Virus record (IMG/VR): IMGVR_UViG_3300036981_000255
Location: 34,617-98,616 of that record
Origin: a virus
DNA: 64,000 bases
Strand: one strand, 5' to 3'
Of this stretch, positions 5,097-39,866 are shown piece after piece. Under the pieces are notes generated by a model. It was not told the DNA's origin. It ran no database searches and saw only the letters and a program-made list of their open reading frames with translations. The position numbers were made by a program, and so were the translations under genes. The first letter of the stretch is position 1. Every line of letters begins with the position of its first letter.

Positions 5097-6359
5097 TTGC
5101 TAAGAACATCCCGACATAGTATCAGTAACACAGCAAATCAAGGCAAACTCAATGTTTTGGGGCAATTCGTTAATGATTACAAACATGATGTTCAATTGTT
5201 TGTTAATAAGATTGTCAAAGGTGAATTTCCGTTACAAACACTATATTCTCCAAAGGGTGTTGAAGGTGCAATCTTAAAACACAGTAAATACAAACGTGAC
5301 ATTTACACAAAAGCAAGTCAAATAGTTAGAGGAGAAATAGCAGCAGCCGAGGAACGCAGATACCAAGCCTACAAGAAATTGTACAAGAAACTTATTAAGC
5401 TAAATATTCATACTGCATTCACTAATAAACGATATAGCGAACTGAACCTCAAACACATTTTCAAAACCGATTTTTTCACTATTCCAGAAATCAAAAATAT
5501 CACTATTGATTTGGCAAAAGATTTGGCTGACATTCAAGACGGCAAACACTTTGACAATTTTGTAAGAATCAAACTTCCATATTTCAATGAAAAAGGCACA
5601 CGAGCCTTACAAATCAAGTTACCAGTCAAAAATTACAAACATTCAAACAATTTTATCACTAAAGGTTACACAAGAAAAACGTCAATCCAACTAAAGAAAG
5701 TCAATAACAAATTCTTCATAAACTTCTTGTGGGAAAAAAACGAAATCAAAAAATCAAAACTATCTTTCAAACCCAAAGTAAAAGCCAAATCAAAAACAGA
5801 CGAACGCCCTAAACAAAGCGACATAATTCTATCCAAAACAGATAACTCAATGGGCATTGACTTAGGCTACAAAAAACTAATTGTAACGTCTAAAGGTCAA
5901 ATCTTAGGAACTGATATGATAAACATTTACAAGAAATTGGTGGCTTGTAAAAGTGGAACAGCAAAATATAAACGTTTAAAAAGAGAACGAGATAACAAAA
6001 TAAACTTCTATGTCAATCAAATTGACTTTGATGGTGTTGAAGTTTTGAAAATCGAAGACCTCAAAGACGTAAAAAAAGATTCAAAAGGTAAAAAATCAAA
6101 AAAGATAAATTCACTTCTCTCAAAATGGATTTATCCAAAAATTATAAGTAAAATAACGATGACATGTGAGGACAAAGGTATTTTGTTGGTAAAGGTTTTA
6201 CCAGCATATACATCACAAACATGTTCATCTTGTGGTGAAATACATAGAAAGAGCCGTAAAGGTGAACTTTACAAATGTGTTTCGTGTGGTTTTGAATTGG
6301 ATGCAGACTTAAATGCAGCAATCAATATCAATAACAGAGGGAGCTTGCAGTCCCCTTAA
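5097..6359 (+). CDS. tnpB: TnpB-family RNA-guided endonuclease (IS200/IS605/IS607 type), apparently intact, no adjacent TnpA
   Basis: RuvC-I MGIDLG, RuvC-II LKIEDL, zinc ribbon TSQTCSSCG...YKCVSCG, RuvC-III DADLNAAINI. Confidence 0.93.
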   Translation: MLRTSRHSISNTANQGKLNVLGQFVNDYKHDVQLFVNKIVKGEFPLQTLYSPKGVEGAILKHSKYKRDIYTKASQIVRGEIAAAEERRYQAYKKLYKKLIKLNIHTAFTNKRYSELNLKHIFKTDFFTIPEIKNITIDLAKDLADIQDGKHFDNFVRIKLPYFNEKGTRALQIKLPVKNYKHSNNFITKGYTRKTSIQLKKVNNKFFINFLWEKNEIKKSKLSFKPKVKAKSKTDERPKQSDIILSKTDNSMGIDLGYKKLIVTSKGQILGTDMINIYKKLVACKSGTAKYKRLKRERDNKINFYVNQIDFDGVEVLKIEDLKDVKKDSKGKKSKKINSLLSKWIYPKIISKITMTCEDKGILLVKVLPAYTSQTCSSCGEIHRKSRKGELYKCVSCGFELDADLNAAININNRGSLQSP

Positions 6360-6448
6360 CCAAAAAACTGGATTTGTGTGAAAATGTGAAATCTTTAGGA
6401 TTCTATGTTTTTATATGGATTTGGTAACTCTTAGGCAGTATTGCAGTT
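6330..6448 (+). ncRNA. putative omega-RNA 3' region of tnpB: right end to ~6428, guide from ~6429
   Basis: Expected position overlapping and downstream of the tnpB 3' end; sharp switch at 6429 to tail-tube-homologous sequence. Boundaries are inferred. Confidence 0.55.
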
Positions 6449-6500
6449 GGATTGAAAATGAAATTTCTCTAACTTTAACATCAGTGTAGTCAAAAGTTCC
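6429..6500 (-). pseudogene. 72-nt fragment of a divergent tail-tube allele (3' end)
   Basis: Translates GTFDYTDVKVREISFSIQLQYCLR versus resident GEFSYGDAKVREISFTIQPQRCLR (6881-6952): 17/24 aa identical, ungapped. Confidence 0.88.
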
Positions 6501-6860
6501 CATCTACCTTAAAAAAAGAAGAAGGGCGTTTCATTGTAATTTATACAGAACAAGACTTATCAAGCAAATTATTAAAACAAAATATTGTCAAATTGTCTGG
6601 AACAGACATAACAAACAAAACACGTCATAAAACAAGTGAGAATCGTTCCAAAGAAACAAGGTTACATCGTTTTTGAAGTGGTCTATGAAGTCAAAGAAAT
6701 TCCAAAAAAGAAAGACAATAAACGTTACCTTTCAATAGACTTAGGCATCAACAATCTATCAACGTTATCAAAGCACAAATCATCAACGGTAAACCACTAA
6801 AATCAATAAACCAAATTTCCAATAAACAAGTATCAAAACTGAAATCAATTATCACAACGA
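6499..6860 (+). pseudogene. tnpB: frameshifted internal remnant of a second, different TnpB (IS1341-like)
   Basis: Fragments GRFIVIYTEQ..IVKLSGT, IKQVRIVPKKQGYIVFEVVYE, RYLSIDLGINNL (RuvC-I) and INGKPLKSINQ in shifting frames. Confidence 0.8.
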
Positions 6861-6871
6861 TAAATAAAAAA

Positions 6872-7363
6872 CTAGTAAAGTCTTAGGCAACGTTGTGGTT
6901 GTATAGTAAATGAAATTTCACGGACTTTTGCATCACCATAACTAAATTCACCAAAATCTAATTCACCTGTTACAATGGCATTTTCAATCAACCATTTAGA
7001 TACTGCTACACCAGTTGGGTCTAATAGTTCAAGTTCAAGATTTTTTGCGCATCCTATATTGTATCCCATACGACCTGTGGCAGATTCAGCGTGAAGACGT
7101 ACCCACTCCATCAATGCTTCACCTTGAGAGGGTGCAACAAAATCTCTAACTTTTATTGCCATTTCTTTCCACTCATACGAGCCATTCACGTATGTTTTAG
7201 TATTTAAAAAAGCAATATCAATTTTTTGCAAGGACATTTTCGGTGAACCGCAAGATATTAATGACCATGTTTGAATACCAACATCTGATGGAAAACGTAA
7301 AATCCAACGATTTGTTAGCATAATTTCATATTGCAAAGGACTTTTTAATAGTAAATCCGCCAT
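6872..7363 (-). CDS. tail tube protein (T4 gp19-like)
   Basis: NRWILRFP, W..MAIKVRD, LMEWVR..AES.TGRMGY, LLDPTG; downstream of the sheath. Confidence 0.88.
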   Translation of the reverse strand: MADLLLKSPLQYEIMLTNRWILRFPSDVGIQTWSLISCGSPKMSLQKIDIAFLNTKTYVNGSYEWKEMAIKVRDFVAPSQGEALMEWVRLHAESATGRMGYNIGCAKNLELELLDPTGVAVSKWLIENAIVTGELDFGEFSYGDAKVREISFTIQPQRCLRLY

Positions 7364-7494
7364 GATAATCAGTAAGTTATATATTTTATTTGTTCTTTGT
7401 TGTTGCTCAATTTTGGCAACCTCTTTTTTATTCCAAAGATAAACTTTATGAATCTTTATATTAAATATCAGTCAAATGATTTTTTTTATAATCA

Positions 7495-7680
7495 TCAGAC
7501 AGGATTACAAACAACCGCACAAGTGAATGTCAATGCTTGAACATTTGGGCATTGTTGTGCTTGTTTTGCAGTAATCTGTGTATTCGTCATTATATCAAAA
7601 TAAACCACAGACGTTGTAACAGTTCCATCTGGATTCATCATATTGATTGTCATTTTTCTAATGTTATCGCAATTAATCAT
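7495..7680 (-). CDS. small hypothetical protein
   Basis: 61-aa ORF in the sheath-tube operon. Confidence 0.5.
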   Translation of the reverse strand: MINCDNIRKMTINMMNPDGTVTTSVVYFDIMTNTQITAKQAQQCPNVQALTFTCAVVCNPV

Positions 7681-7687
7681 AAGATAT

Positions 7688-9211
7688 TTATTTTCTTTTT
7701 CTTTTTCTTTTGTTCTTGTTTGCTTTGAGCGCTTCTTGCTCTCTCAACTTTTTCATCGTTAATTTGATGAAAATTTCAACATTACCTTTTACGTGGTTTA
7801 CAACTGATTCATCTGTGAAAATTTTCTCTAACACATTGGACATTGATTTGAATGCTTCGTCTTTAAGATAAAGTCCTCGTGAGTTCTTGACAACATATTT
7901 TAAAATCGGTAAAGTCACAATTTCAGCAACTCTTGAAACACTTCTTCCATCAATAATGTTTTCAATATCTTGGTAATCCATACCAAAAACAGCCGTTTTG
8001 ACTTCACGTTTGATTTCAGTTCGTAAATTTGGAAGATTGTCAAGAATACCATCCAATATTTTCCACTTATTCCGTTCAATTGAACCCTTCAAATGCCTAC
8101 CTTTAAACTCGTCATATTTATCACTAAAATACCCTTCAGACATTTGATTATTCATCAGTTTTTTCACACCTAAAACATCACCAACATCAAGCAACGTTAT
8201 CAACATCTTATGAATATTTTGTTTATCAATAGTGTTCAATTTTTCCATTGAATCAACAAACATTTTACTGATTTGATTACCGATATTAGAATCTAAATTT
8301 AAACTATCAAAAAACTTGTCCAAGTTTTCTTCACCATCATCAATAATTTTTACCAACTCTTTAATTTCAGGCGCAATAAAATCTTTGGCAGTTACTTCAT
8401 TCAATAGTTTATCATAAATATCATAAGATTCATTTTTATTCGCTTGACTTTGCAAAAAACTGATGATTTCACGATATTTAGGGACAAATGATTTTTTAAC
8501 CCAATTGGAATATGTTTCTTTGTATTGTTTGAACTGTCCAATAGACTTTTCATCATTCATTTGACTTTCAACATTGTCGAAAACATTTAAAATGTTGTCA
8601 TTTGATTTTCTACTAACTCCACTTGATTGTGGTTGGGCAGTTTTTGCATTTGGCAACACACTAGAAATCAAATCTTGGTATTCTTTTGAATTTGAAAGGT
8701 CTTGTAATTTACCTTTTAAAACTTTCTCAAGATTTGTCTGCAACATCTCACGAACTTTACCATTTCTCACAACTTCTCCAAGGGCTTCAAACACATGTCT
8801 ATCGAGTTCACTATTACCAGTGGATACTTTGGACATTAATGGTGTATATTGACGGATTTTACCGCCTATGGATGCTTCACCGAATGTCTTATCAACAAAG
8901 TAAGAAAGCATTGGAATCCCTATAAGTCTAAAGACGTTTTGATAGTCCGTAGAGTTTGGATTTTTTTGATAATCAGTCAACGTTTTTAAAATATCAACGT
9001 TTGATTTCCCTGCTTCAATTAACTTTTTGTACAAATATTTTGCAAATTCGCCTTCAAATGTTTGTGAAAGAATAGATGCAATTTTTTTGTTATTGATACT
9101 TTGTTCTGACGAGCCGAAATTACGAATCTTGTTCAATACAGATTTGGGGTCAATTTCATTCAATTGACCCCTCTGTTCAAGTTTTATTTGTTCAAGTATG
9201 TAATCTCGCAC
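7688..9211 (-). CDS. hypothetical virion/internal protein with several L-x-E sites and a basic C-terminal tail
   Basis: 507 aa, GTG start, between sheath and tube; GQLNE, KLLNE, QMSEG; ends KNKRKRKRK. Confidence 0.6.
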   Translation of the reverse strand: MRDYILEQIKLEQRGQLNEIDPKSVLNKIRNFGSSEQSINNKKIASILSQTFEGEFAKYLYKKLIEAGKSNVDILKTLTDYQKNPNSTDYQNVFRLIGIPMLSYFVDKTFGEASIGGKIRQYTPLMSKVSTGNSELDRHVFEALGEVVRNGKVREMLQTNLEKVLKGKLQDLSNSKEYQDLISSVLPNAKTAQPQSSGVSRKSNDNILNVFDNVESQMNDEKSIGQFKQYKETYSNWVKKSFVPKYREIISFLQSQANKNESYDIYDKLLNEVTAKDFIAPEIKELVKIIDDGEENLDKFFDSLNLDSNIGNQISKMFVDSMEKLNTIDKQNIHKMLITLLDVGDVLGVKKLMNNQMSEGYFSDKYDEFKGRHLKGSIERNKWKILDGILDNLPNLRTEIKREVKTAVFGMDYQDIENIIDGRSVSRVAEIVTLPILKYVVKNSRGLYLKDEAFKSMSNVLEKIFTDESVVNHVKGNVEIFIKLTMKKLREQEALKANKNKRKRKRK

Positions 9212-9224
9212 TTTTCGTTATTTG

Positions 9225-12200
9225 TTAAATATTTGTAAAATCAACCCCTACTGGTGAAAGCACAAATTCAATGTTGATGTACTCTAAAGTTCTAATAGGT
9301 TGAATCGCAATTTTACAATTCATGGCATTACTATTGAAACTATCGGCTGAACGGTCAATTTGAATTTGATAATCAAAAATACCACGTTCATCACGGATGT
9401 TCGCCAAAATCGGATTCACAAGATTTTCAAATTGTCTTCTGACTTCTTCATCGTTTTGTTCAAACAATAATGTTAAAGACACATCTTCAATTAAACGTCT
9501 CATGTACAAGATTAAACGTCTAACGTTGATACGGTCAAGAGCAGATTCTGCAATTTGTAGATTTTTATTACCCCAAATATACACTGGGCTAGTTCCGTTT
9601 GCTTGTTTGAGTGTGATAAGTGAATTGATACGTCCTTCAAATAAAGCATCACGCTCATCGAATGTCAATTTCTTTCTCGCTTGTCTAAATTCAGTTTCAC
9701 CTATTTTTGTACCAGCAGCAGCGCCCCAAGGTTTTCTCAATTTATCATTCAAAGCAAAAATACGCATCGCTTCAGCAGTGGGTGGCAACCACAAATAAAC
9801 ATTGTTCACTTCATCAAACATTTGACCCCAAGGAAAATACGTTGCTGTATAACTTGAGTCAAACAAACCATCAATTACACCAGCAGCATCTTTTGCTTTT
9901 AAAGTTTGTCCACCTGAATCTTGGTCAAGAGTAGTTGTAACGTAGAATGTATCACAACGCTCGTTTTCAACCATATCAATAGTTTCTTCGATAAGGTCAG
10001 TGTTTTCAGTTGTGTTCAAATTAGGTGTTGCCAACAAGTTCATACGAATTTCATCTCTATTCGCTAGAACTCTGATACCTTCCAAATATGCGTAAAAGTC
10101 AGAATTGATAACAGTTTGACCGTTATTGATATTTTCAGAAGAATATACACCAAAATTTCCACTGACTAAACCTTTTTGTCCAAGGCTTCCTTTTACAGAA
10201 TATTGGTCTGTGTTTGTACGTCTTTTTCTATGAATATCCCAACCGTCAAAGCCACCATAAACCATCATTGTGAATTTTCTTGCGAAAACTTGTTCGTAAT
10301 CAGTACCAACCATGTCAGATTCGTTTTGGAACGCAAATTCACCTCTGTCAAACTCTACAGCTCCAAAGCCTTCAACTGTTACCCCTGTGGCATTAACGTC
10401 CATGTGGAATCCATGTGTTGAACCTGTCCAAAATGGCAAATCTGGGTCAGATGGAACACCTTTATAAGTGAAAAAGTCAGCGTCAAAACCTAATGTGTCT
10501 GTAAATCCAAGGTAAACTTGACGTATTCTGTCAAAATCTTCGTACTTAGTTTTATAAACAATTTGCGGAGCTAAAGCACACTCGTAATCACGAACAGGAT
10601 AGCCTTCAAAACCTGCTGGGAATGATTCATCTTGACATTGAACACCCATTTCAATCATAATGTGCTTACTTTGCAACACATGGTCTCCATCGACTGTACC
10701 AATACGTCTTGCGATATAGTTGGTATCATTGGCTCTCAACGTAACGTTTGTGAAACTTTCCAAAACCACAGGACGTTTATCTGTATCACCATAAGAACGA
10801 ACTTGAACATCAAAAGATTTTTTGTCAGGTCTTATGTTTGTAATAGACACTTTAACATCAGTGTTTGCAGCATCACCATCAGAAAATGTATGGAAACGGA
10901 ACAAACGGAACACTCTGTTACCACGAAGCTCGGATACAACCCAAGGTGTCATAGCAGGTTGATATGGCTCTTTGTAATCGTCCAAATCTTGTGTATAACA
11001 AACAGTCGGCTTGATACAATAAATCAAACCATTTTCGTACAAATAATTGAATGTTGTACCAAAAAATTCCTCCAAATATAACTGTGTTGCAGGTGGGCAA
11101 CAAGGAATAAATTGTGTAAATACACGTAGAATGAAATTCTTTTTGGTTTTGTCCAATGATACGTTGTATTCAAAAGCAACACCATTTCTGTTTGTTCCTT
11201 TGATTAAGAAATCGTCCAATGGTTTTATAATGCCACCATCCAATGATTCAATAGTGACAACATTTCCTTCAACCGCAAAATTTAGAATTTCATCTCCGTC
11301 ATAAGTTGCAAATGAACGAATCAAAGCAACAATAGTGTTATCGTATTGAGCATAAGGTGTTCCTGACAATTCAATAACAGTTCCACTAAACTCGTGTGTC
11401 ACTAAACCCGATGGAATTTGGGAAACCACTTGTTGTGTTGTGCCAGAAACCACCGAAGTTGTGATGATAGTTGTACCAGTTGTGATAGTGAAATTGACAC
11501 CTTGAATGGTTTCACAGTCATAAACTGCTGCGTTTCCTGCCAAGTCGCAAATTTTATATTCACCGCCACTGAAAACGTCACCGTTAGGGAAGAAAATCGA
11601 ACCATTTTCAATCACTATAGAACCGTCAACATTATGTGTAATTGTTCCACCGACTAAAGTTACAATTCCAGATTCTACAATGGTAAGTTCATTTGTATCA
11701 ACGTTTTGAACAACCATTGGGTTAGTAACTGTAATAACAAATGTACTATCAGTAGTAACTGTACCACCACTATAAAGCACAAGACAATTTTGAACTTCAC
11801 TTGGGACATCAATTGTAACACCAACAGCAGTTTCACCTGTGATACAAATATAAGTTTCTTCTGATGTCAGCAATTGCATGGTAAATCTTGCGCCTGTGAA
11901 GGTTGAACAATCGCCCATCAATGTATTCCCCAAAGAAACTGATTGACCAGTCGCCAAATCTGCTCCACCGAAAACAGTAGTTGCAATTTCACCTGCATCA
12001 TACAAATCTTGCAAAACGGTGTTGCTGAAAGTTACGTTAGAAACTGCGCCATTTGCATACTTGATAGTAGCAGTGAAAGCAGAAGTTGAAGTTGTTGTGA
12101 TAGTTGCAGGGTCAAGTGATGCGCCAAAAGAAATACCCCAAGAATCACCAGCATCATATCCTGTGAATCCTAAAATTCTACTGACGAATAGTTGGTCTGA

Positions 12201-13902: not shown

Positions 13903-13919
13903 TAACGATTAATAAAAAG

Positions 13920-19291: not shown

Positions 19292-19294
19292 AAA

Positions 19295-19897
19295 ATGAAA
19301 ATAATATTAACCGAAAATCAATATAATTCACTATTCAACGAAATCTATTTTTCCACTTTCAGTGAAAACCAACAAACGCCAGTAAACTGTGATTGCTGTC
19401 AATATTTTGATTTTGAATCTTTGATGCAATATGGTGGCTTCGAGCATCCCATTTATTATCTTATCAATAAACGTGAGACTAATGACCTTCAATTCATGTC
19501 TCCTGATGATTATATAAAATCCATTGCCAAAGCATCAAACCTTTCGACTTCTGAAATAGTAAATTCAAATGTTGTTTTTCAACAAAAAATAGATAAATAT
19601 GCCGAGTTGATGCGAAACGGCACTAAGTTCCCTATCGGTTTTTATACAATTGGTAAATCTTATCAAGAAGGTCGTCATCGAACCTTGGCAGCAAAACAAA
19701 TTGGTTGTTTATCAATACCTATGGTAAGGATTGTAAAAAATATTTCAACAAAAGATGTTGAGAAAGTCGTAAGAGGTTTGATTGGAAAGTCAAGAGAAGT
19801 GGTCAATCAAATGTATGTCGATAAGGGCTTTAAAGGGATTACAGATTTGGATTGGCGAGAATTAAACAATTATCAAAAATATTACTTAAATCAATAA
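19295..19897 (+). CDS. leader-tagged ParB/Srx-like domain protein
   Basis: MKIILTENQYNSLFNE; KIDKYAELMR.G.KFP...QEGRHR.LAA...G...IP. Confidence 0.6.
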   Translation: MKIILTENQYNSLFNEIYFSTFSENQQTPVNCDCCQYFDFESLMQYGGFEHPIYYLINKRETNDLQFMSPDDYIKSIAKASNLSTSEIVNSNVVFQQKIDKYAELMRNGTKFPIGFYTIGKSYQEGRHRTLAAKQIGCLSIPMVRIVKNISTKDVEKVVRGLIGKSREVVNQMYVDKGFKGITDLDWRELNNYQKYYLNQ

Positions 19898-19899
19898 AA

Positions 19900-20373
19900 A
19901 TGAAAATATTTCTGAACGAAAGTCAATATAAAGTGTTATTTGAAAATTCTGCAACTAAAACAAAACTCAAAGGTTTAAAACCTATGGGAGTTTATATGAA
20001 AGCAGCATTTGATTCTGGGTATGATGAAGAATCAATGGCAAAAATGCAAATCAATAGATTTTTGAGCCGTCTAACAAATTTGCCAGAAGTTGTAACGTTA
20101 TATCGAGTTGTTTTTGTTGATGATGAATCAAAGATTGACCATGTAAACATTGGTGAACATTATGGTGTCAATGAGCGAAACCTTTTAGCAAGCCATTACA
20201 GACAATCACACGTTGGAGGTGGAAAACCATTCTTGTTAACAGTCAAAGCAGATAGAAATCTTGTGAATTTCCATGAAACTCTTTTGAATAATATCATCTA
20301 TCCACATGAAAACGAGATTACTTTGAAGAACAATGGACGTGGTGCAAATATTGTGAAAATTAAACCGTTGTAA
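19900..20373 (+). CDS. leader-tagged ADP-ribosyltransferase-like protein
   Basis: True start ATG 19900, MKIFLNESQYKVLFEN; VTLYRVV, IGEHY, YPHENEI (R...ExE pattern). Confidence 0.55.
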   Translation: MKIFLNESQYKVLFENSATKTKLKGLKPMGVYMKAAFDSGYDEESMAKMQINRFLSRLTNLPEVVTLYRVVFVDDESKIDHVNIGEHYGVNERNLLASHYRQSHVGGGKPFLLTVKADRNLVNFHETLLNNIIYPHENEITLKNNGRGANIVKIKPL

Positions 20374-32252: not shown

Positions 32253-33248
32253 TTAAAATCTATAAACTTCTTTCAAAATAGTACAAATTAGTTCAGCAGA
32301 TTTTCCGTTGCCATAAGGACAAGGTTCATTAATTTCATAATCGTTAATAACTTGTTCAAATATCATTGACAAATCATTAGGCGTTGGACATAAAATCAAA
32401 TGGTTACTTTTTTCCATTCTTTCAGATTCAACTCTGCAAACGATAACCTTCTTTTGAAGAAACGTTGCTTCTTCTTGGATGCCACCAGAATCAGTGATAA
32501 CTGTTTTACAATCTTTCAAAATATTGATTAAATCTTCATGCGCTAATGGTTCTACAACTTTAACATTTGTCAATAAATTTTTATGCTTTAAAACATTAGG
32601 ATTCGGATGAATCGGAAGGATAAATTCAATTTGTGAATATTTATTTGCCAATTGATTTATTTCATTAAACCATTGGTCTATTTTATTATGATTTTCTCTC
32701 CGATGAAGTGTACACAATACTTTGTCAGTATAACTTGGAACTACGTCAATCAAATGGTCTAAAACAGTGTTTCCAACAACATAAGTTTTTCCGCCACATC
32801 TTTCCATTTCAATGTTATCGGCATTACTTTGTGTGGGACATAAATGCACAGCCGTAAGACGTGAAACCATTTGTCTATATGCTTCTTCAGGATACGGATT
32901 TTCTAAATCATAAGTTCTTAAACCTGCTTCAAGATGAATGATTGGAACTTTCAAATTGTAATATTTCAAAGCAATAGCACAGACAGAAGCAGTGTCACCT
33001 TGAACTAAAACAGCAGAAGGCTTTAAATCTTCTAATTCAGAAGACACTATAATTGAAGCAAATATGTTGTTCAAACGTTCAATGGGTCTATTCGGGATTA
33101 TCAATTGATAATCAAAAAAACCATCAGTGATAGATTCATGTTGTCCTGTGAACAGAATTTTAAAATCTATTGAATTTGTCTTGAATATATTGATTAAAGG
33201 TTTTATTTTAATCCATTCAGGTCGTGTGCCGTATGTGAGTAATATCAT
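32253..33248 (-). CDS. wecB: UDP-N-acetylglucosamine 2-epimerase
   Basis: GTRPEWIK, TGQH, VQGDT, HLEAGLRT, PYPEE, TLHRREN, TDSGGIQEEA, PYGNG. Confidence 0.95.
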   Translation of the reverse strand: MILLTYGTRPEWIKIKPLINIFKTNSIDFKILFTGQHESITDGFFDYQLIIPNRPIERLNNIFASIIVSSELEDLKPSAVLVQGDTASVCAIALKYYNLKVPIIHLEAGLRTYDLENPYPEEAYRQMVSRLTAVHLCPTQSNADNIEMERCGGKTYVVGNTVLDHLIDVVPSYTDKVLCTLHRRENHNKIDQWFNEINQLANKYSQIEFILPIHPNPNVLKHKNLLTNVKVVEPLAHEDLINILKDCKTVITDSGGIQEEATFLQKKVIVCRVESERMEKSNHLILCPTPNDLSMIFEQVINDYEINEPCPYGNGKSAELICTILKEVYRF

Positions 33249-33251
33249 TTG

Positions 33252-33830
33252 TTATTTCTTAATGGTTAAATATCCACATTTTAAATGCGAATATCTAAGA
33301 TTTTTATATTTTGATGTTGAACCATTTAACGGTGTCGCAACTTGTGTTATCTTTCTATTTAAAAATAATTCTACAGCATTTAAATCTAATCCTCTCGAAT
33401 CATTCAAATCAAATGTTATTATCAATTTTCCACCAGATTTAAGTTGTTTAATTTGATTTTTTAATATTTCAACGTGTGGCACATTCTTTATTTCTTCTAA
33501 AGTTGAAACATTTATTATGCAATCAAATTTACCATGAAAAACTGGATTATCTTTTGTTATATCATATACAAAAGTGTTAGGTAATTCAGATTTTTGTATA
33601 TCTGAATTCAAAACATTAATATATTCTTTTTCTAATATATTCTTAAATGTAATATGTACACCCATATACCCCCAACAAGAGTTATGTATTAGAATATCAT
33701 TGTTTTCAAATTTAGAAAGTTCCTGCAAAACAAAATGATATTCATAAGGACGTGACCAACTATACTCATCTATAAATCTAACGTCAACGTCATCATTACA
33801 ATCAAAATAACTGAAATTCTCAATTATCAT
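33252..33830 (-). CDS. SAM-dependent methyltransferase-like protein
   Basis: WSRPYEY, FDCIINVSTLEE, LKSGGKLIITFD. Confidence 0.7.
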   Translation of the reverse strand: MIIENFSYFDCNDDVDVRFIDEYSWSRPYEYHFVLQELSKFENNDILIHNSCWGYMGVHITFKNILEKEYINVLNSDIQKSELPNTFVYDITKDNPVFHGKFDCIINVSTLEEIKNVPHVEILKNQIKQLKSGGKLIITFDLNDSRGLDLNAVELFLNRKITQVATPLNGSTSKYKNLRYSHLKCGYLTIKK

Positions 33831-33837
33831 AGCAATA

Positions 33838-34503
33838 TTAATTATTTATATTTTTAATTTCATATAATCCACAATTTATCCCATTAAACCAAATATCCTC
33901 TGAATTATTATATAAAATTATTTCTTTATGAACACAATCTACTTCAAATATATCTTTTAATCTTTTTTCAAAATCATAATGGGATAAATCATCAATAAAA
34001 ACATAAGAGCCATTTACTAATTTATTAACAAGATGTAAAAATGCAATAGACCTCCCATTACCATGACTTCCATCTAAAAGTACAAAGTCTATTTCAAATG
34101 GTACGTCATTTTCATTTAACTTATAAAAAGTATTTTTTTGCCTAGATGTTGCAGGTGTAGTTTTAGTTTTGAATTTATTTGAATCATAAGATTTATTAAT
34201 AAACATTTGATTAAAATCTACATCACTGCATTCTTCCAAATCTTTTATTAATAAAGATAAATTTTCATGTTTTATTTTAGCAGCATAATTTATATCACTA
34301 TCAAAAGAAACAATGTTAAATTTTTTACCCATTTTTTCTAACAAATCTATCAAAAATATAGTAGATACACCAGAACCAAATTCAACAATTGATACAAATT
34401 CTTTATCTTTGAATTTATGTTCAAACAAAGATGTTATCAATTCTAAAGATTTTTTAGATAATCCCCAGCCACCATTTTTATATTTTTCGTAATTCATAAT
34501 CAT
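33838..34503 (-). CDS. SAM-dependent methyltransferase
   Basis: IVEFGSGVST, DFVLLDG, GSYVFIDD. Confidence 0.8.
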   Translation of the reverse strand: MIMNYEKYKNGGWGLSKKSLELITSLFEHKFKDKEFVSIVEFGSGVSTIFLIDLLEKMGKKFNIVSFDSDINYAAKIKHENLSLLIKDLEECSDVDFNQMFINKSYDSNKFKTKTTPATSRQKNTFYKLNENDVPFEIDFVLLDGSHGNGRSIAFLHLVNKLVNGSYVFIDDLSHYDFEKRLKDIFEVDCVHKEIILYNNSEDIWFNGINCGLYEIKNINN

Positions 34504-34508
34504 TTTTT

Positions 34509-35240
34509 TTACCAGATACAGGTTTTTGTTAATGTATTGCCATTTTTTAAATATTTTCGAGTTGCGCCCAAGCCAAGCATCACATCTAAAGTTGAACCAA
34601 TATCCAAAAATGTATTTTTAGTATTTAATTTATGACATTCTAAAATAGCAAGATTTGAAAATGTTCCAGCAGCAAATAAAAAAATACAATCTTTAACATT
34701 TTTTGCAATTTCTTTTATTTCTTCTATTTTATGATAGTCTTGAATCCATGCGTTTGCTCCAATTTTCACATGATTTATAGGATTGAAAGGAATTTTGCTT
34801 AAATCTGATTTTTCATGTGAAATAAGTACAATTTTTTCATTTTTTAACATTGGTAATAATACATGGCAAAACTTTTGATAGTTAGAATTAACAAAGATAT
34901 TTGCCCAAGTTAATCTATTTGCAGGTTGTTTAGATTGTTTCACTATTCTATTAAAACTATCAATTCCAACACAGCAACTACATGGTAACCCTACAAAATA
35001 TGAATCATTTTGATATTCTAAAGATTCAAGCATTTTTTTTTGAAAAAAAACATGGCTACTGTCAGTTGGGTCATATTTATGTTCTCCATTAAATTTCAGT
35101 GAAATATCAATAGGTTCACCATCAATTATTTTTAATTCTCCATCACCGAATCTTGTTAATGAAAAATTTTCGTGATTTTTTATTTTATTAATAAAAATAT
35201 CTAAATCACCGTTAAAAGTTTTATTTACCATCTCTTGCAA
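34509..35240 (-). CDS. GT-D fold (DUF1792-like) glycosyltransferase
   Basis: FSLTRFGDGE, FLFAAG, LDIGS.LD. Confidence 0.8.
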   Translation of the reverse strand: MQEMVNKTFNGDLDIFINKIKNHENFSLTRFGDGELKIIDGEPIDISLKFNGEHKYDPTDSSHVFFQKKMLESLEYQNDSYFVGLPCSCCVGIDSFNRIVKQSKQPANRLTWANIFVNSNYQKFCHVLLPMLKNEKIVLISHEKSDLSKIPFNPINHVKIGANAWIQDYHKIEEIKEIAKNVKDCIFLFAAGTFSNLAILECHKLNTKNTFLDIGSTLDVMLGLGATRKYLKNGNTLTKTCIW

Positions 35241-35955
35241 GTTTCCAGCCTTTTTTTATATAAATATTACACAAACTATTTCTAATCTCATAATGGTTAG
35301 AAGTGTGTAAATGTGTGGCGTTTACATCATTTCCCCACTTTACTGCAAATTCAGTATTATTACCCCAAACTTCTTTATTAGTTGGTGGATGTGGTGGCAC
35401 GAATGTATTTATGTTTCCATACTTTTGACATAGATATGAAAATTGAATATCTTCTCCATTATCCCAAGATTGTGGTTCTTCCATCCACATATATTTTAAC
35501 CACTCTTTCTTAAAAAACCAAGCATGACCAACTAAATCAACTCTAACTGGCTCAACATTATTGTTAGCTGTCCAACCGAATTTTTGATTTGGTGAATAAT
35601 TGTTATTAATCAATTTAACACCTGATGCGCCAAGAATCCCATTTACTTTTTCAATTGTACTTAAACAATTTGAAAACCATTTTTTTTGTGGTAAACAATC
35701 ATCATCAAAAATTGCAATATATTTAGTTTTTGCTAAAAGACCTAATGCAAATCTGCCGTGAAATTTAAAATTATGTGAACAATTAATAACTTTAATTGTT
35801 GGGTCAGTGATAACTAGTTTAGGTTTAGTACCCATGTTATACCATATCCAAATTTCTTCTGGTGGATTTGTCTGTTCTTTCAAACACTTAATTTGCATTA
35901 ATAATGTTTCAGGTCTATTATAAGCCGTTAGAATTGCAGTGATACCGTTAGTCAT
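35221..35955 (-). CDS. GT-A glycosyltransferase
   Basis: ITAILTAYNRP, FDDD, VDLVGHAWF, GEDIQFSY. Confidence 0.85.
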   Translation of the reverse strand: MTNGITAILTAYNRPETLLMQIKCLKEQTNPPEEIWIWYNMGTKPKLVITDPTIKVINCSHNFKFHGRFALGLLAKTKYIAIFDDDCLPQKKWFSNCLSTIEKVNGILGASGVKLINNNYSPNQKFGWTANNNVEPVRVDLVGHAWFFKKEWLKYMWMEEPQSWDNGEDIQFSYLCQKYGNINTFVPPHPPTNKEVWGNNTEFAVKWGNDVNATHLHTSNHYEIRNSLCNIYIKKGWKLARDGK

Positions 35956-37616
35956 TTTTCAAAATTTTTAGTGATAATTTTATGTTTTTTTCTAATAGTT
36001 GGATTCATAATTGAAACATCACCTAAATGATTTACAAGTGATTTTTTAGGAATATAAACATGGTAACCCAAATTATTTATCAAATGTGACATTTGTCGCC
36101 AAACACCCGAAGATAGGTCTTGATTATTTGCCCACCTAGTCATTGAAATTTCATCAAGTTTAAATTTAATCGTATTTAAAAAATTTACAGGATATATTGC
36201 GCCACCATCAACCCAATGTTTTAAACCCCACCTAACTAAATTGGAGCTTGCATCTGTTTGAGCTTTGATTACAAAATTACCTTTATTTGAATCAATAATT
36301 TGTTGAATTTTTTTAAAAAAATCAGAGGTTAATTCAAAATCGTCATCCAATTGAATAAACCATTTAAATTGGTATTGTTTGACAATTGCCAATAAATTGT
36401 TTATTGTTTGCCAATATTTATGTTTTCCATTATTTTTAACATTTCTAATTAACGTTAAATCTGGACAAATTTCAGACAATTTTAAATATTCAGATACTTG
36501 TGGTGAAAAATCATCAATTACAATAATTTTTACAGAATATTGTTTTTTCTGTAAATTTAAAATAGATACTAAACTACTCACATCTTTAACTCTTGAATAT
36601 GATGGAATACCAACTATAAAATCGTAAGATGTACCCACATCATTATTACTATAAACTATACCAAACTCTTTAGACTGAATATATTGGTATGGTTTATTGT
36701 CAACAGCCTTAATGGGTTCAAACTTCTTCTGAAATGCCGTCAATATCTTTTGATTTTCACCAACACCGTTAGAATCTCTTGCAACTACTGGCGCAACATT
36801 CACAGAACCAGAACCAATAGACATATCATTCCTCAAACCAAGTCCTGCGCCACCGAGCATAATCAAAGGACGTTTTATATATCTTTTGTCTTTTGTTTTG
36901 TCCCAAACTTTTGATATGAAGCGATAATCGCCACATTTCCAGCCATCCCATTTGATTGTTTTGGCGATTCCACTATGAACAAGGATGCAAGGACTACCGA
37001 TTCTGCCGAGTCGTGGTTTGGCGTTCATTTCAGTTAGTGGTGGAAGAAGATTGCCAGTAGGATATTTCATTTGAAAAATCAAAAGGTCTGTGTTGCTTTT
37101 GATTTCATTGACCATAGACTGAATTGCATTGTTATCTATCAAGTAGTCATCATCATCAAGGATTAAAACCCAACCTTCGTTTATTTTTTCAATTAGAGTG
37201 TTGAAGTAAAGATTGTAAATGAAACGTTTGCCAGTATTGGGATTGGGAATATCTGGCATTTTTTCAACTTTTTCTTTGTCGATAAAAATATAGTCAGAGA
37301 AGCCGTCCAGTTCAACGTAAGATTTATCAGCCAAAGAATCTATTGACACAATATGTCTTATGTTTTGATAGATTTGTCCTTTGATTGAATCTCGACATCT
37401 TTTGAAACTATTAGGTCTGTTGCTTGTGCGAGTGATAATGTTTATCAAAGGCTCTTTTTCAGTTATTAAAATTGGACTTTGTACTAAATTCGTTTGATTT
37501 TGAATAACGACAGTCCTCTTTGCAACAACTGTTTTAGTTGGCATTTTAGGCGCAATCCTTTCGACTGATATACTTCTATTGTTTTGGCGTTCTGCTAATT
37601 TTTTGATGTGTTTCAT
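35952..37616 (-). CDS. double-domain GT-A glycosyltransferase
   Basis: NIITRTSNRP...LDDDD and VGIPSYSR...QLDDD domains. Confidence 0.8.
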   Translation of the reverse strand: MKHIKKLAERQNNRSISVERIAPKMPTKTVVAKRTVVIQNQTNLVQSPILITEKEPLINIITRTSNRPNSFKRCRDSIKGQIYQNIRHIVSIDSLADKSYVELDGFSDYIFIDKEKVEKMPDIPNPNTGKRFIYNLYFNTLIEKINEGWVLILDDDDYLIDNNAIQSMVNEIKSNTDLLIFQMKYPTGNLLPPLTEMNAKPRLGRIGSPCILVHSGIAKTIKWDGWKCGDYRFISKVWDKTKDKRYIKRPLIMLGGAGLGLRNDMSIGSGSVNVAPVVARDSNGVGENQKILTAFQKKFEPIKAVDNKPYQYIQSKEFGIVYSNNDVGTSYDFIVGIPSYSRVKDVSSLVSILNLQKKQYSVKIIVIDDFSPQVSEYLKLSEICPDLTLIRNVKNNGKHKYWQTINNLLAIVKQYQFKWFIQLDDDFELTSDFFKKIQQIIDSNKGNFVIKAQTDASSNLVRWGLKHWVDGGAIYPVNFLNTIKFKLDEISMTRWANNQDLSSGVWRQMSHLINNLGYHVYIPKKSLVNHLGDVSIMNPTIRKKHKIITKNFEK

Positions 37617-37626
37617 TTATTCGATT

Positions 37627-38046
37627 TTAATTGGAAATAGGTTCATTAAAAATAATGTTCCAACCATCTAAATTTTCCCAATCACCATTTAAAGTTAAAA
37701 CCTGTAAATCTTTCGATAATACAGGTTCAAATGAGATATATTCCACCCCTTTATTATTCCGTATTCTTGGAGATAGTGTAAAATTATTATTTTTTTTAAT
37801 TCTTAAAATAACGCTATTGTGTACTCCACCTTTAGAATTTGCGTAATATTTAGCATAATCTAAACTGTTTGTAAAAGAAATAGATGGCATTTTTTCACCA
37901 GTATTATTGGTTTTCATATATCCATCACGTTGAATACCTAATGTTGCGCCCTTGCTTGTTCCATGATAAAGATATACATCTTCAGACTCTTCAATAAACA
38001 TCTTTTGATATTGTTGTTCAGACAATAGGATTTTTTTCTTTTTCAT
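37627..38046 (-). CDS. leader-tagged ADP-ribosyltransferase-like protein
   Basis: MKKKKILLSEQQYQKMFIEE; YLYHGTS, I...G, ISFT.SLDYAKYYA, VILRI, EY. Confidence 0.65.
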   Translation of the reverse strand: MKKKKILLSEQQYQKMFIEESEDVYLYHGTSKGATLGIQRDGYMKTNNTGEKMPSISFTNSLDYAKYYANSKGGVHNSVILRIKKNNNFTLSPRIRNNKGVEYISFEPVLSKDLQVLTLNGDWENLDGWNIIFNEPISN

Positions 38047-39570
38047 TTATCCAATGTGGGTAATATATTTTCGCAAATGGGCAATATTTTTTTGAATATA
38101 GGGAACTAAAATGTTTAAAAAGTCACTTTGCTCATTTGCTTTCTTTTCTTCATTTTTAATTCGAGTTACTGATTCATAATGATAACAAACAGCTTGACCA
38201 ATATAAATATTCTTTAATCCGTGAGAAATACAATTGAAATTCAACAACACATCTTCAAAGCATTCAGTTACATTTTCATTGAATGCTCCCAAAAATTCAA
38301 AAGTCTCTTTTCCAATCATTAGAAATGCGCCTGTATTCCCAAGGGTGTCATATTGTTTGTCATAAGACGCTTTATAATAACTTCTTATGCCTATATGTGA
38401 AAGTCCTATGTGGTTTTGTTTGTTGTGAAAAAGTGCAATGCCACCATGTTGAATGGTGTTGTCTGCATAATGTAAACGACAACCAATTGTTCCAACGTGT
38501 TTTTCGTGTTTGTTGTAAGTTTGAATCATTAGAGAGATGGCATCATTTATCATAACCAAATCGTCATTAGCAAATAACAAAACTTCTGTGTCTGTATCAA
38601 TATAATCGAAGACCATTGAGTTATTGATTTTGGCGAAGTGATAGTATGGAAATCTGACGATGTTGATTTTATCATTGTGGATTCCATTAACAGATTTGCA
38701 CAAATCTTTGACTTGCTCAAATTTGTCTTCGGATGAACCAGTATCAGCTATGTAAATTTTGTAATTGGTGTATTTTGTTTTGAGAAGGGATTGGACACAA
38801 GTATCTAAATAGTCAAAATTGTCTTTTGTTGGAATTATAATAGCCAATTTAGGCTCTTTTGTGAGTTTGATTGGCGAATGGTCAGCAATAACGTTAGGAA
38901 CGATTTTTAAAGGCAAATATTGACCATAAAGGTTTTCAAACAATGCTTTATTTGTGTGCCATTGTTCATTTGGCATTCCAATTGAATCATGTTTCACGAT
39001 TATATCGGTTATTGTTCCGACCTTAACACCTTGCAGGTGGTTATTTACACATATTGGGAGGTCATAAAAGTGAAAACCTACAAATCGCTCGTCAAAGTTA
39101 GATTCGATACGTTTTTTGTGTAGCGCTATAAATAAGCCATCTATGACTAAAGAAGAAAGAATTTGATTTGAAAATCTTTGGCAATATTGAGACTCATGCC
39201 ATCTGTCAGTCTTTTGATTGTTGTGGTACACTGGGTGAAATACACGTCCAAGCATCTTATTAGAATCTGCCCACCATTTTCCGCTTGCGAGGTCTGTTGT
39301 GCCAGCAAGACCTAAAATTCCATAATCAGATTTTTCAAAATAGTCAACTATTTTTTTATCCCAACCCTTTTCAAGATAAACGTCATCATGAACACAAACC
39401 AAAATGTCATATTTTGATTGTTCTATTGCTTGATTATAGGCTTTTGCCAATGAAGTTGAACCATCATTGACAAATTCGATAACTTCAATGTCTTTGAGGA
39501 CACAACTCTTTTGAAGTCGTTTGCTGATGGATTTATTTGAAAATCTTGTGGAATAGAAGATAGAAATCAT
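38047..39570 (-). CDS. double-domain GT2 glycosyltransferase (start MISIFYSTR)
   Basis: VCVHDD, IDGLF, FHFYD; IIIPTKD, ANDD, GCRLHY, TGAFL, FEDV. Confidence 0.88.
   Translation of the reverse strand: MISIFYSTRFSNKSISKRLQKSCVLKDIEVIEFVNDGSTSLAKAYNQAIEQSKYDILVCVHDDVYLEKGWDKKIVDYFEKSDYGILGLAGTTDLASGKWWADSNKMLGRVFHPVYHNNQKTDRWHESQYCQRFSNQILSSLVIDGLFIALHKKRIESNFDERFVGFHFYDLPICVNNHLQGVKVGTITDIIVKHDSIGMPNEQWHTNKALFENLYGQYLPLKIVPNVIADHSPIKLTKEPKLAIIIPTKDNFDYLDTCVQSLLKTKYTNYKIYIADTGSSEDKFEQVKDLCKSVNGIHNDKINIVRFPYYHFAKINNSMVFDYIDTDTEVLLFANDDLVMINDAISLMIQTYNKHEKHVGTIGCRLHYADNTIQHGGIALFHNKQNHIGLSHIGIRSYYKASYDKQYDTLGNTGAFLMIGKETFEFLGAFNENVTECFEDVLLNFNCISHGLKNIYIGQAVCYHYESVTRIKNEEKKANEQSDFLNILVPYIQKNIAHLRKYITHIG
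39532..39536 (+). other. TAM/target-like pentanucleotide TTTAT directly 5' of the resident near-match to the orphan guide
   Basis: TTTAT|TTGAAAATC...; IS200/IS605 elements insert 3' of AT-rich tetra/pentanucleotides. Confidence 0.6.
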
Positions 39571-39612
39571 ATAACTATATTTTTTTTCAGTTTCAATATA
39601 TTTAATAATAGG

Positions 39613-39660
39613 AATATTTGCAATCAATATCAAAAACAAGATATATCTTTTGCAAATATT
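39613..39660. repeat. 11-bp inverted repeat upstream of the orphan omega-RNA
   Basis: AATATTTGCAA (39613-39623) / TTGCAAATATT (39650-39660). Confidence 0.6.
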
Positions 39661-39672
39661 AAACAAAAAACA

Positions 39673-39852
39673 GTCTGTTTATGGAACAGAATCGGACTCT
39701 AAACAAAAACAGGGTAAGGCGTTGCTAAAGTCTTCAGAAAAAGAGCAAAGAAAAATGCTTCGATTTGTCGCAAGCAAGTCTACGACCTCTGATGCTCATC
39801 TACATCAGCAATGGTGTGGGTGAGCAGTTCACTTGAATGTCTAGTGGAATAA
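39673..39852 (+). ncRNA. orphan TnpB omega-RNA (IS200/IS605 right end ending GTTCAC at 39832) plus guide; no TnpB ORF
   Basis: 15-bp stem TGCTCATCTACATCA-GCAA-TGGTGTGGGTGAGCA (39793-39826) with 3 G.U pairs and a GNRA loop, then GTTCAC; further hairpin TGCTTCGA-TTTG-TCGCAAGCA; 5' part resembles IS605-type tnpB 3' ends. Confidence 0.75.
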
Positions 39853-39866
39853 AAGATTGAAATCAT
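39833..39866 (-). pseudogene. 34-nt alternative 5' end of the adjacent glycosyltransferase gene
   Basis: Encodes MISIFYSTRHS versus resident MISIFYSTRFS; 29/34 nt identical to 39537-39570. Confidence 0.88.

Follow-up and report, generated by a model that had tools for sequence, protein, structure and literature searches.

Two loci in the window, by which we mean the whole analysed stretch of 64,000 nucleotides of viral DNA, carry a predicted RNA guide that lies antisense to a neighbouring gene and comes from a fragment of a diverged allele of that gene. Both loci are, on balance, probably the footprints of selfish TnpB (OMEGA) elements that spread by RNA-guided homing between co-infecting phages. 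A first-pass annotation had noticed the arrangement and proposed a domesticated, CRISPR-like system. Homing fits the data better than such a tamed defence, and domestication is unsupported: the element at locus 2 has no nuclease, an older element at locus 1 (relic B) is dead, and element A at locus 1 appears to be an ordinary insertion, like its sister copy C elsewhere on the contig. The reading as homing or gene drive, the latter offered by the same annotation, is reasonable in view of the diverged-allele guides, the mismatches in the seed, the recurrence of the layout and the dN/dS of tnpB A.

Anatomy of the two loci

The features of both loci are collected in Table 1. At locus 1, the boundaries of element A were set by alignment with sister element C (contig positions 1235-2663), to which it is 73% identical, and this comparison placed the right end, ...GGTAAC, at position 6428. 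The same kind of ending, ...GTAAC or GCAAC, is present in the clade members L088, L084, L248, L252, L253, L156 and L173. The tnpB A reading frame matched PF07282 with 72.6 bits (cut-off 26.3), and D255, E320, D404 and the four Cys are invariant in an alignment of A, C, L088, L154 and L156. The score against the NCBIfam model guided_TnpB was 90.4 bits, below its cut-off of 100, and neither the IS200/IS605-type TnpB model NF038281 (32.6 bits, cut-off 425) nor the IS607-type model NF038280 (34.1 bits, cut-off 350) was reached. No match to a Y1 HUH transposase (PF01797) or a serine recombinase (PF00239) was found in the 98.6-kb contig, which is about 36% of the genome. The tnpB A gene is under purifying selection, with a dN/dS of about 0.15 against copy C. 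In the case of the predicted omega-RNA scaffold, the consensus fold of A and C, two close sequences only, contains 32 pairs with 2 compensatory changes, 7 one-sided changes and 0 broken pairs; a Rfam scan of the window gave no match to RAGATH-18 or any other family there. The 5 nt before the left end are TAAAG for A and CGTAG for C, the two copies available, and copy C splits one small ORF of 73 codons.

Table 1. Positions of the features of both loci in the window.
Feature	Position	Strand	Description
Native intrinsic terminator of X'	4808-4877	-	15-bp stem, then U run
Last 9 nt of X' (Leu-Tyr-stop)	4919-4927	-	split from the remaining X' sequence by element A; ends in TAAAG, candidate TAM
Element A	4928-6428	+	TnpA-less TnpB element: left end, tnpB, right end
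tnpB A	5097-6359	+	420 aa; RuvC Asp-Glu-Asp and CxxC...CxxC intact
Predicted omega-RNA scaffold	6337-6428	+	short GC hairpin over stop codon, 22-bp G-U-rich stem, then GGTAAC
Predicted guide of element A	6429-6448	+	antisense to last X' codons; first bases past the shared right end
X' 3' fragment, displaced tube allele	6429-6508	-	80 nt, about 26 codons, in-frame tail-tube C-terminus, by translation and alignment
Relic B	6509-6871	+	frameshifted internal piece of a second TnpB, of classical type; without left or right end
Resident tail-tube gene X	6872-7363	-	gp19 family
Resident site homologous to the A target	6876-6900	+	TAAAG plus 20 nt (6881-6900)
Resident glycosyltransferase gene Y	38047-39570	-	507 aa; PF13712 and PF00535
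H1, first 34 nt of gene Y	39537-39570	-	abuts left end of mini element; TTTAT before it on the plus strand
Nuclease-less mini element	39571-39832	+	262 nt: short left part, tnpB 3'-end relic, structured RNA with 15-bp stem and GTTCAC
Predicted guide of locus 2	39833-39852	+	templated by the plus strand of H2
H2, displaced native 5' end of Y	39833-39866	-	ATG at 39866; joins the native upstream sequence without a break

Element A lies within the displaced end of a tail-tube allele, X'. The longer X' fragment abuts the right end of A at a distance of 452 nt from the resident tube gene, with whose end (6878-6935) it aligns ungapped at 44 of 58 nt. Joining position 4927 to 6429 gives ...CLRLY-stop, identical to the resident tube C-terminus, and the minus-strand fold of 4795-4927 has an energy of -30.3 kcal/mol (z = -4.86). 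Because removal of element A restores the X' end and its terminator, A is most simply read as an ordinary insertion into a leftover gene end. X' has Leu in place of Pro156, which is invariant in 24 tube homologues; this change at guide position 17 suggests that the guide of A may already be drifting. For resident gene X, 2408 homologues were found, some with PF06841, and the phage matches are annotated as tail tube. The closest one, P0002 (83%), is known as a protein from a short JGI contig only, and a protein-pattern scan of IMG/VR with the tube protein gave no close relative. At 80 distant tube-gene loci, TnpB was near none. Between X' and X, relic B matches phage TnpB/OrfB genes over 6636-6800 (tblastn, E = 2e-8). 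Relic B, an older and now dead TnpB, probably created the leftover X' end.

The 262-nt insert at locus 2 folds far better than its shuffles (z = -5.26). It keeps a trace of a nuclease gene at 39620-39638, where 18 of 19 nt match the 3' end of tnpB A, and two outward promoter-like sites on the minus strand (39633-39595). As a correction to the annotation, a nuclease gene is present at locus 1 only. The start of gene Y is probably the ATG at 39570 and not the TTG at 39666, as indicated by the duplicated MISIFYSTR... sequence. H1 and H2 are identical at 29 of 34 nt, and the codons differ by 3 synonymous changes and 1 non-synonymous change. For the locus 2 RNA, the Rfam scan gave noise and no family, and no match was found in all fetched loci (blastn, nhmmer) or in phages (low-stringency blastn). 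The right ends of the classical phage TnpBs of Quidividi and csAssE-Sib are unlike it, and the mini element is single-copy in the contig. The right ends of locus 1 and locus 2 have no common sequence. As the annotation held, the two elements are unrelated and the layout arose independently.

The gene-end repeats at both loci are not due to chance, because only six short-range diverged direct repeats scoring at least 22 exist in the whole 98.6-kb contig and two of them are these loci. The predicted guide of element A mismatches the resident site at positions 10, 11, 12, 16 and 17, with the 5' TAAAG kept, and that of locus 2 mismatches the start of resident Y at positions 6, 7, 11 and 20. The earlier statement that the resident alleles differ within the first 12 guide nucleotides is therefore correct at both loci (10-12 and 6, 7, 11, respectively). 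In the window, the guide of A has no other match with up to 3 mismatches, and the sole such match of the locus 2 guide is its known resident site.

Recurrence in other phages

An element between diverged gene-end repeats was found in 3 of 62 loci with an intact TnpB on unrelated IMG/VR phage contigs and in 1 of 277 pseudo-element controls (p = 0.02). The layout is seen in L088, where 192 nt of the 3' end of an SNF2 helicase gene are repeated (class II), in L154 (150 nt, a 5' end plus promoter) and in L156 (112 nt, a 3' end). A second, clade-focused sample added L180, L176, L173 and L174; it was drawn from the clade of the known positives, and the pooled p = 0.003 is thus inflated. The enrichment that the annotation expected at TnpB elements was seen with this flank-to-flank geometry only, and a first wide test for any repeat near the right end gave no clear enrichment (11/67 vs 14/134). 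A whole gene beside the element and a diverged displaced end on its other side, the layout of fungal mitochondrial mORFs, is found at locus 2 with gene Y, in the arrangement of relic B, X' and X, and in L088, L154, L156, L180, L176 and L173.

The divergence between the two repeat copies, H1 and H2, is 15-32%. The differences at codon positions 1/2/3 number 6/2/21 in L156, 10/9/31 in L088 and 4/2/11 in L154, and this third-position bias indicates that both copies evolved as working alleles. The repeat copies would accordingly be alleles from different phages and not designed recoding. The claim that the resident copy is recoded did not hold, as the repeat copies differ like functional alleles and, in the guide region of locus 1, every difference is non-synonymous (Tyr to Arg, Leu to Pro). 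The enrichment of mismatches in the seed is weak. In total, 16 seed mismatches were counted vs 12.1 expected (p = 0.11), and seed-specific recoding as a strong claim was rejected. Each of the six class I loci has two or more mismatches among guide positions 1-12, a post hoc result with P = 0.03. In these loci the spare copy stops exactly at a stop or start codon, and the sequences before H1 showed no clear common TAM.

Several candidates were discarded. L096 and L097 were dropped as members, their repeats being a common non-coding motif and not gene ends. Duplication in situ followed by decay was ruled out by the third-codon-position bias, and target-site duplication by the length (34-192 nt) and divergence of the repeats.

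The TnpB A clade is common in viral contigs and almost lacking in cells: 185,579 cellular species genomes yielded only about six full-length relatives, all with no more than 39% identity. A 90%-identical copy of TnpB A is present in another metagenome; the closest homologues, P0122 (90%) and P0123 (69%), are known as proteins from short JGI contigs only. Protein-pattern scans of IMG/VR with TnpB A alone revealed no close relative, one metagenome scanned for relatives gave best matches of up to 46% identity, and the exact right-end pattern had a single chance match in IMG/VR, without TnpB. Sequence LR756500.1 and phage SRB7757 carry relatives of TnpB A whose flanks are without duplication. Both loci were also compared by blastn with 50,697 phage records, among which there was no match, and when an unoccupied sister of L180 was sought, only L180 itself came up.

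Proposed origin and alternatives

Under the homing reading, an unoccupied allele would be cut under RNA guidance and the element then copied in by recombination, with no transposase of its own. The product would have the layout H1-element-H2, in which one gene end is present as two diverged copies, H1 and H2, derived from two phage alleles, and the left edge of H2 serves as the template of the guide. H1 must mismatch the guide because it keeps the upstream context including the putative TAM; otherwise the phage would cut itself. Locus 2 would belong to class I, with the gene body on the left-end side. Here a unit made of a spare 5' end of the glycosyltransferase gene and the element would have entered gene Y, which stays whole since the unit brings the spare end. 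The displaced native 5' end would supply the guide, and later deletion of the nuclease gene would have left an orphan guide-RNA module. Locus 1 would be a compound case of class II. An older event of the same topology may have stranded the native X' end beside relic B and imported the whole gene X. Element A would later have inserted between TAAAG and TC inside the stranded end, so that its guide is the X' allele. If active, A would cut tube alleles of the X' type in rival phages without the insert, and resident X would be spared. The element would then be copied, with neighbouring genes co-converted, or the rival would be excluded. What speaks against homing is that the window holds relics and one ordinary insertion, and no working spare-end cassette. 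The duplicated fragment of class II does not restore anything and so looks more like a by-product of recombination than a design.

More tentatively, and with somewhat less confidence than in homing as such, the largely phage-restricted TnpB clade may consist of natural cleave-and-rescue homing cassettes. Such an element would insert in conserved genes of phages and bring along a spare end that carries mismatches and stems from another allele; the native end would be kept as the template of its guide. In mixed infections it would thereby drive itself and the genes linked to it, with no need of a transposase. The window would then display three life stages: A as an active plain insertion, locus 2 as an orphan guide module and B as a dead relic.

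The leading alternative, which we consider rather unlikely, is that the gene ends are inert scars of illegitimate or one-ended recombination with diverged phages, of no present consequence, and that the elements no longer cut anything relevant. It agrees with the death of relic B, the missing nuclease of the mini element, the class II fragments (locus 1 and L088) that restore nothing, the change of X' at an invariant Pro and a density of seed mismatches equal to ordinary allelic divergence. Inert scars are, however, hard to reconcile with the strong purifying selection on TnpB A and its 90%-identical copy in another metagenome, with the enrichment of the topology at TnpB elements over controls, with class I spare copies that end precisely at a stop or start codon, and with an RNA structure still intact in the mini element (z = -5.3). 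An improbable explanation is a domesticated inter-phage weapon, that is, single-guide TnpB modules kept to destroy close competitors, with resident alleles selected to escape. One guide is aimed at a tail-tube gene and the other at an accessory gene nearby, the candidate TAM is kept at the resident sites yet the seed is mismatched, the clade is essentially phage-restricted, and free-standing homing endonucleases are known to kill competitors (PMC13565253). Nothing that was seen separates a benefit to the phage from a benefit to the element, though; one of the two modules is without a nuclease, copy C merely disrupts a small gene, no array, adaptation machinery or guide turnover is present, and the allele differences are ordinary and, at locus 1, non-synonymous.

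Unequal crossing-over appears slightly less probable still. In this scheme, copies of the element at staggered edges of a gene end, H, in two genomes would recombine within the element and so duplicate H, which would make the logic of a spare-end cassette unnecessary. Duplications that enclose an insertion sequence classically arise in this way, recombination between phage genomes is free, and both class I and class II would be covered. A TAM would have to be present at each edge of H, however, where the 5-nt contexts differ (TTTAT/ATCAT, AAATA/AGATT, AAGAG/CATAA), and one of the parental insertions would disrupt the gene. Moreover, since H1 and H2 are allelic and 15-32% diverged, two diverged parents would be required, both with an element a few dozen bases apart. 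The least credible proposal, with a very low probability, is antisense regulation, in which the right-end RNAs would act in cis, independently of a nuclease, on the 3' end of the tube mRNA and on the translation start of the glycosyltransferase. Gene repression by nuclease-dead relatives of TnpB is known (TldR). Both guides run antisense to the gene beside them, and the RNA tail of locus 2 is complementary to the Y start region at 29 of 34 positions and fully to the leader copy. This complementarity follows from the topology itself and nothing else supports regulation; TnpB A retains its catalytic residues, and the duplication is left unexplained.

TnpB is the ancestor of Cas12, and to our knowledge its natural role has been shown so far only as transposon retention and plasmid drive. 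If the homing reading is true, the guide-encoding gene-end duplications of phages are field evidence for TnpB as a transposase-free inter-viral homing endonuclease. It would explain how an element can reside in an essential gene such as that of the tail tube without killing the phage, and the layout itself would explain the need for a mismatched resident allele. Such elements would be intermediate between those whose guide equals their flank and systems that store guides against foreign DNA. They may also give rise to mosaicism and to marker exclusion among large phages, and they would offer compact natural sets of nuclease, guide and target that can be tested directly.

Comparison with known systems

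Unlike in CRISPR-Cas, the guide lies in the right-end flank of a transposon; the window contains no CRISPR repeat family at gathering score, and the contig repeats include no array-type direct repeats. The loci also differ from IStrons, in that the genes are kept whole by duplication and not by splicing, and Rfam scans of the window and of locus 2 gave no intron family. Protein-less derivatives of IS200/IS605 elements (PATE/MITE-like) exist, and the locus 2 element resembles them in having retained end sequences and a structured right-end RNA after the loss of tnpB; it differs in being single-copy and flanked by a diverged 34-nt duplication of a gene end. In engineered cleave-and-rescue drives, a CRISPR nuclease directed against the natural allele is linked to a cleavage-resistant working copy. 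The proposed logic of class I is similar, with the difference that it would be natural and phage-borne, and that the rescue would be the allele of another phage.

A close precedent for the nuclease is the homing of IS200/IS605 and IS607 elements by TnpB and omega-RNA (Karvelis 2021, PMC8612924; Meers 2023, bioRxiv 10.1101/2023.03.14.532601). Homing of TnpB independent of TnpA has been documented in plasmids (PMC11870625; PMC13565253), and a 2026 review treats homing from phage to phage as no more than a theoretical possibility (PMC13565253). Common to these systems and the loci described here are a RuvC nuclease of the TnpB family and a predicted guide taken from the DNA just beyond the right end; in TnpB/omega-RNA homing the occupied site is protected, and an allele without the element is cut and then repaired with the occupied copy as template. 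In contrast to IS200/IS605 and IS607 elements, no transposase was found on the contig, TnpB scores far under the family cut-offs and the clade is almost confined to viruses. Known TnpB elements lie between TAM and target without duplication, whereas the elements here are flanked by two diverged copies of a gene end; the same genome thus contains a second homologous site with a candidate TAM, which must mismatch the guide.

The free-standing homing endonucleases SegF, SegB and Mob of T-even phages perform intronless homing (PMC13565253). As there, the nuclease gene stands beside its target, self and rival would be distinguished through substitutions in a conserved gene nearby, and in a mixed infection neighbouring markers would be co-converted or the competitor excluded. 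Recognition in intronless homing is by protein and does not need a copy of the sensitive allele; here a fragment of that allele must stay beside the right end because it encodes the predicted guide. The arrangement of gene ends resembles that of fungal mitochondrial mORFs, which bring a foreign gene C-terminus while the native C*-terminus remains downstream, as in Glomus atp6, atp9, cox2 and nad3 and in Allomyces atp6 (PMC3630166). In both cases an endonuclease element within a gene comes with a diverged replacement end, the native end persists as a displaced duplicate, and the copies are alleles of different lineages. The mORFs encode protein endonucleases (LAGLIDADG, GIY-YIG) in organelle genomes, and their displaced end has no targeting role. 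The phage loci would instead be RNA-guided, with 5' as well as 3' gene ends involved and, in class I, with the displaced end itself as the template of the guide.

Element A and the tail-tube locus

The window covers bases 34617-98616 of a 98.6-kb IMG/VR virus contig, which was estimated by CheckV to be 36% complete, so the whole phage genome would be about 270 kb. The GC content of the window is about 31%, and a gp19-type tail tube is encoded together with further myovirus genes. No close relative was found in the phage collection or IMG/VR, and no transposase was found on the 98.6-kb contig. Coordinates of the features are collected in the table.

Features of the two predicted guide loci and other repeats, in window positions unless stated
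Feature	Position	Strand	Description
tnpB A	5097-6359	+	PF07282 match
Element C (locus L002)	contig 1235-2663, outside the window		second TnpB copy, 73% identical to A
X' remnant	6429-6508		displaced 3' fragment of a second tail-tube allele, about 26 codons only
Relic B	6509-6871		internal fragment, frameshifted, of another TnpB of classical type; lacks both ends
Resident tube gene X	6872-7363		whole; stop codon directly after relic B
Resident gene Y	ATG at 39570		glycosyltransferase
H2, locus 2	39833-39866		29/34 match to H1, the first 34 nt of Y
Y' ORF	39866-39783	-	28 codons, MISIFYSTRHS..., antisense into the structured RNA
69-codon genes	2435-2644 and 2899-3108		88% identity across 225 nt, on either side of a 79-codon gene (whole stretch 2435-3123)
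Direct repeat	19292-19326 / 19897-19931		83% over 35 nt, at starts of adjacent plus-strand genes
Direct repeat	56785-56925 / 57406-57555		72% over 150 nt

The alignment of element A with its sister copy C stops at ...GGTAAC (6428) on the right and near 4928 on the left. The RuvC Asp-Glu-Asp residues and the zinc finger are kept in both nucleases, and the comparison of the two genes (dN 0.22, dS 1.45) indicates purifying selection on the TnpB protein. TnpB A scores under the curated cut-offs of both the IS200/IS605-type and the IS607-type TnpB. In both right ends, a short hairpin is predicted over the stop codon and with it a G-U-rich stem of 22 bp. Two base pairs have changes on both sides and seven on one side only, with no pair lost. 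Given its G-U content, the predicted stem would form only on the plus-strand RNA. The ...GTAAC/GCAAC terminus was also present in distant clade members, which supports 6428 as the true right end and 6429-6448 as the predicted guide. Element C splits one 73-codon ORF whose joined flanks form a single continuous frame; no flanking duplication was found there.

When positions 4919-4927 are joined to 6429 onward on the minus strand, they encode the tail-tube C-terminus ...CLRLY-stop, and a strong terminator hairpin with a U-run lies 45 nt past the joined stop codon (z = -4.9). The restored C-terminus and terminator indicate that A is a plain insertion between TAAAG and TC, at the 3' end of the tube allele X'. 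The remnant of X' is family-like, yet has Leu at an invariant Pro, and its homology with X runs from about the stop codon inward. The order at this locus (locus 1) is the native terminator, the X' stub with element A, relic B and the imported X.

In the resident X, TAAAG and guide positions 1-9 are unchanged. The guide is mismatched at positions 10-12, where a Tyr codon becomes an Arg codon, and at 16-17, where a Leu codon stands against a Pro codon. In ISDra2 TnpB, the TAM-proximal seed covers about 12 nt, and mismatches there should block cutting (PMC8612924 and structural studies). By this analogy, the predicted A guide should be kept from cutting X.

The resident X has no terminator of its own (4808-6871, minus strand). 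Before meeting the native terminator at 4808-4877, its transcript would have to cross, in antisense, relic B, then the X' stub and the whole of tnpB A; through such read-through, late transcription could interfere with TnpB or omega-RNA expression.

A putative guide module at the glycosyltransferase gene

At locus 2, diverged copies of one gene end stand on either side of an element; the left edge of H2 templates the predicted guide. H2 keeps its own ATG and is continuous with the native upstream region. It differs from H1 in three synonymous codons and one non-synonymous codon. The 262 nt separating them contain no ORF, include a remnant of the 3' end of a tnpB gene (18/19 nt, encoding ...AINI) and fold far beyond shuffles (z = -5.3), with a terminus of a 15-bp stem and GTTCAC. 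The RNA showed no likeness to any Rfam family or any retrieved element, and we call it a putative omega-RNA from its position and context only. The resident Y copy has TTTAT upstream and mismatches to the predicted guide at positions 6, 7, 11 and 20. Only two tnpB genes are present on the contig, both of the A type, so the partner nuclease, if any, would be encoded in the missing 64% of the genome.

Two outward promoter-like sites, recognized by consensus match only, face Y from the left part of the element. A 28-codon ORF begins at the displaced start of Y'; should the native promoter still work, it could be translated as a leader peptide.

The first-pass annotation had reported that each guide region differs from the resident allele within its first 12 nt, and this was confirmed at both loci (positions 10-12; 6, 7 and 11). 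Its description of the resident copy as recoded does not hold at locus 1, where the guide-region differences are non-synonymous.

Gene-end repeats in other phage loci

Six short-range diverged direct repeats scoring at least 22 were found on the contig, two of which are loci 1 and 2; both predicted guides are otherwise unique in the window. The paired 69-codon genes, separated by an unrelated gene, look like a small gene recently duplicated in tandem. The direct repeats at 19292-19931 and 56785-57555 may be shared N-terminal leaders.

Recurrence was examined in 80 IMG/VR loci with TnpBs 24-46% identical to A, of which 62 non-redundant ones were used, by comparing the 350 nt past the TnpB stop codon with the 1600 nt ahead of the start codon. 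Strong diverged direct repeats corresponding to gene ends were found in three of the 62: L088 (192 nt at 74% identity, from the 3' end of an SNF2 helicase gene), L154 (150 nt at 80%, 5' end and promoter) and L156 (112 nt, 74%, 3' end with the stop codon kept). An equally high score occurred in 1 of 277 control pseudo-elements from the same flanks and 80 TnpB-free phage loci (Fisher p = 0.02). The nucleases of all three loci have intact catalytic residues. Two weaker candidates were discarded as shared non-coding motifs. A second scan, seeded with L156 and L154 and hence biased towards positives, gave 23 new loci, among them L180 (99 nt, 85%, differences nearly all third-position, five within the first 20 nt), L176, L173 and L174.

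Every case has the order H1-element-H2. In class I (locus 2, L154, L156, L180, L176, L173), the body of the gene is on the side of the element's left end, and H1 completes the working gene; in several loci, H1 ends exactly at the start or stop codon. The displaced fragment, H2, is the template of the predicted guide. In class II (L088 and relic B at locus 1), the body of the gene is on the side of the right end, and the fragment adjoining the left end restores nothing; in L088, the predicted guide falls within the 3' UTR, 48 nt beyond the stop codon. Since H1 retains upstream context in both classes, it must not match the guide.

Genes adjoining the TnpB cassettes at L088:5257-8211 and L156:4951-8748 carry Hint, Intein_splicing and LAGLIDADG_3 signatures, which suggests that several kinds of homing element hit the same conserved phage genes. 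At L174:3962-5132, a 40-nt repeat (39/40 identical) that includes a ribosome-binding site occurs twice, directly ahead of a disrupted tnpB and directly ahead of the gene downstream; the element seems to have copied the translation start region of that gene and taken one copy for its own use.

Putative homing and its relation to known systems

Differences between H1 and H2 at codon positions 1/2/3 were 6/2/21 in L156, 10/9/31 in L088, 4/2/11 in L154 and 1/1/3 at locus 2, which indicates that both copies evolved as coding sequence. On this pattern, H1 and H2 are alleles from different phages, and neither local duplication followed by decay nor designed recoding fits. Seed mismatches were not clearly concentrated (16 observed vs 12.1 expected, p = 0.11), and every class I locus has at least two (P = 0.03, post hoc). 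They fit a survivorship filter against self-cutting, with weak evidence for anything beyond it.

Once formed, such an arrangement could home, with the guide cutting the naive allele of a recipient at the left boundary of the H segment. The gene body or left context on one side, and H2 with its context on the other, would serve as homology arms, and repair would copy H1 along with the element. The class I recipient gene would stay whole, so the element could live inside conserved genes. The two edges of H have no common TAM, which speaks against unequal crossing-over of staggered copies as the source of the first copy; illegitimate joining, or one-ended strand transfer, between genomes in co-infection may have produced it. 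At locus 1, A may have homed from a donor into a stranded X' stub still bearing the target, while X escaped; alternatively, A may have come first.

The window appears to carry a putatively active ordinary TnpB insertion (A) with a predicted guide against a foreign tail-tube allele. It also contains a putative orphan guide module in the spare-end layout (locus 2) and a dead relic of the same topology (B). What the first-pass annotation observed is thus confirmed. Its proposal of a domesticated, CRISPR-like or gene-drive system beside self-immune targets is partly supported: the gene-end layout recurs in other phages; domestication is unsupported, the seed bias is weak and the recoding is absent from locus 1.

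The TnpB A clade looks virus-restricted, with almost no members among 185,579 cellular species genomes. In viral contigs (L087-L166), full-length relatives occur commonly, at 40-46% identity; the one-per-species cellular genomes (L248-L327) gave only about six, at most 39% identical and all from MAGs. For TnpB homing, the experimental case cited in a 2026 review is plasmid drive, and entry into co-infecting phages is regarded there as a theoretical prospect; the intronless homing of protein endonucleases is also described (PMC13565253). In fungal mitochondria, mobile ORFs bring along a gene C-terminus, and the native C-terminus stays behind downstream (PMC3630166); they are the protein-endonuclease analogue of the H1-element-H2 layout. 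No TnpB counterpart of that layout was found in the literature, and the general phenomenon described here is, as read from the loci compared, a new form of putative TnpB homing.
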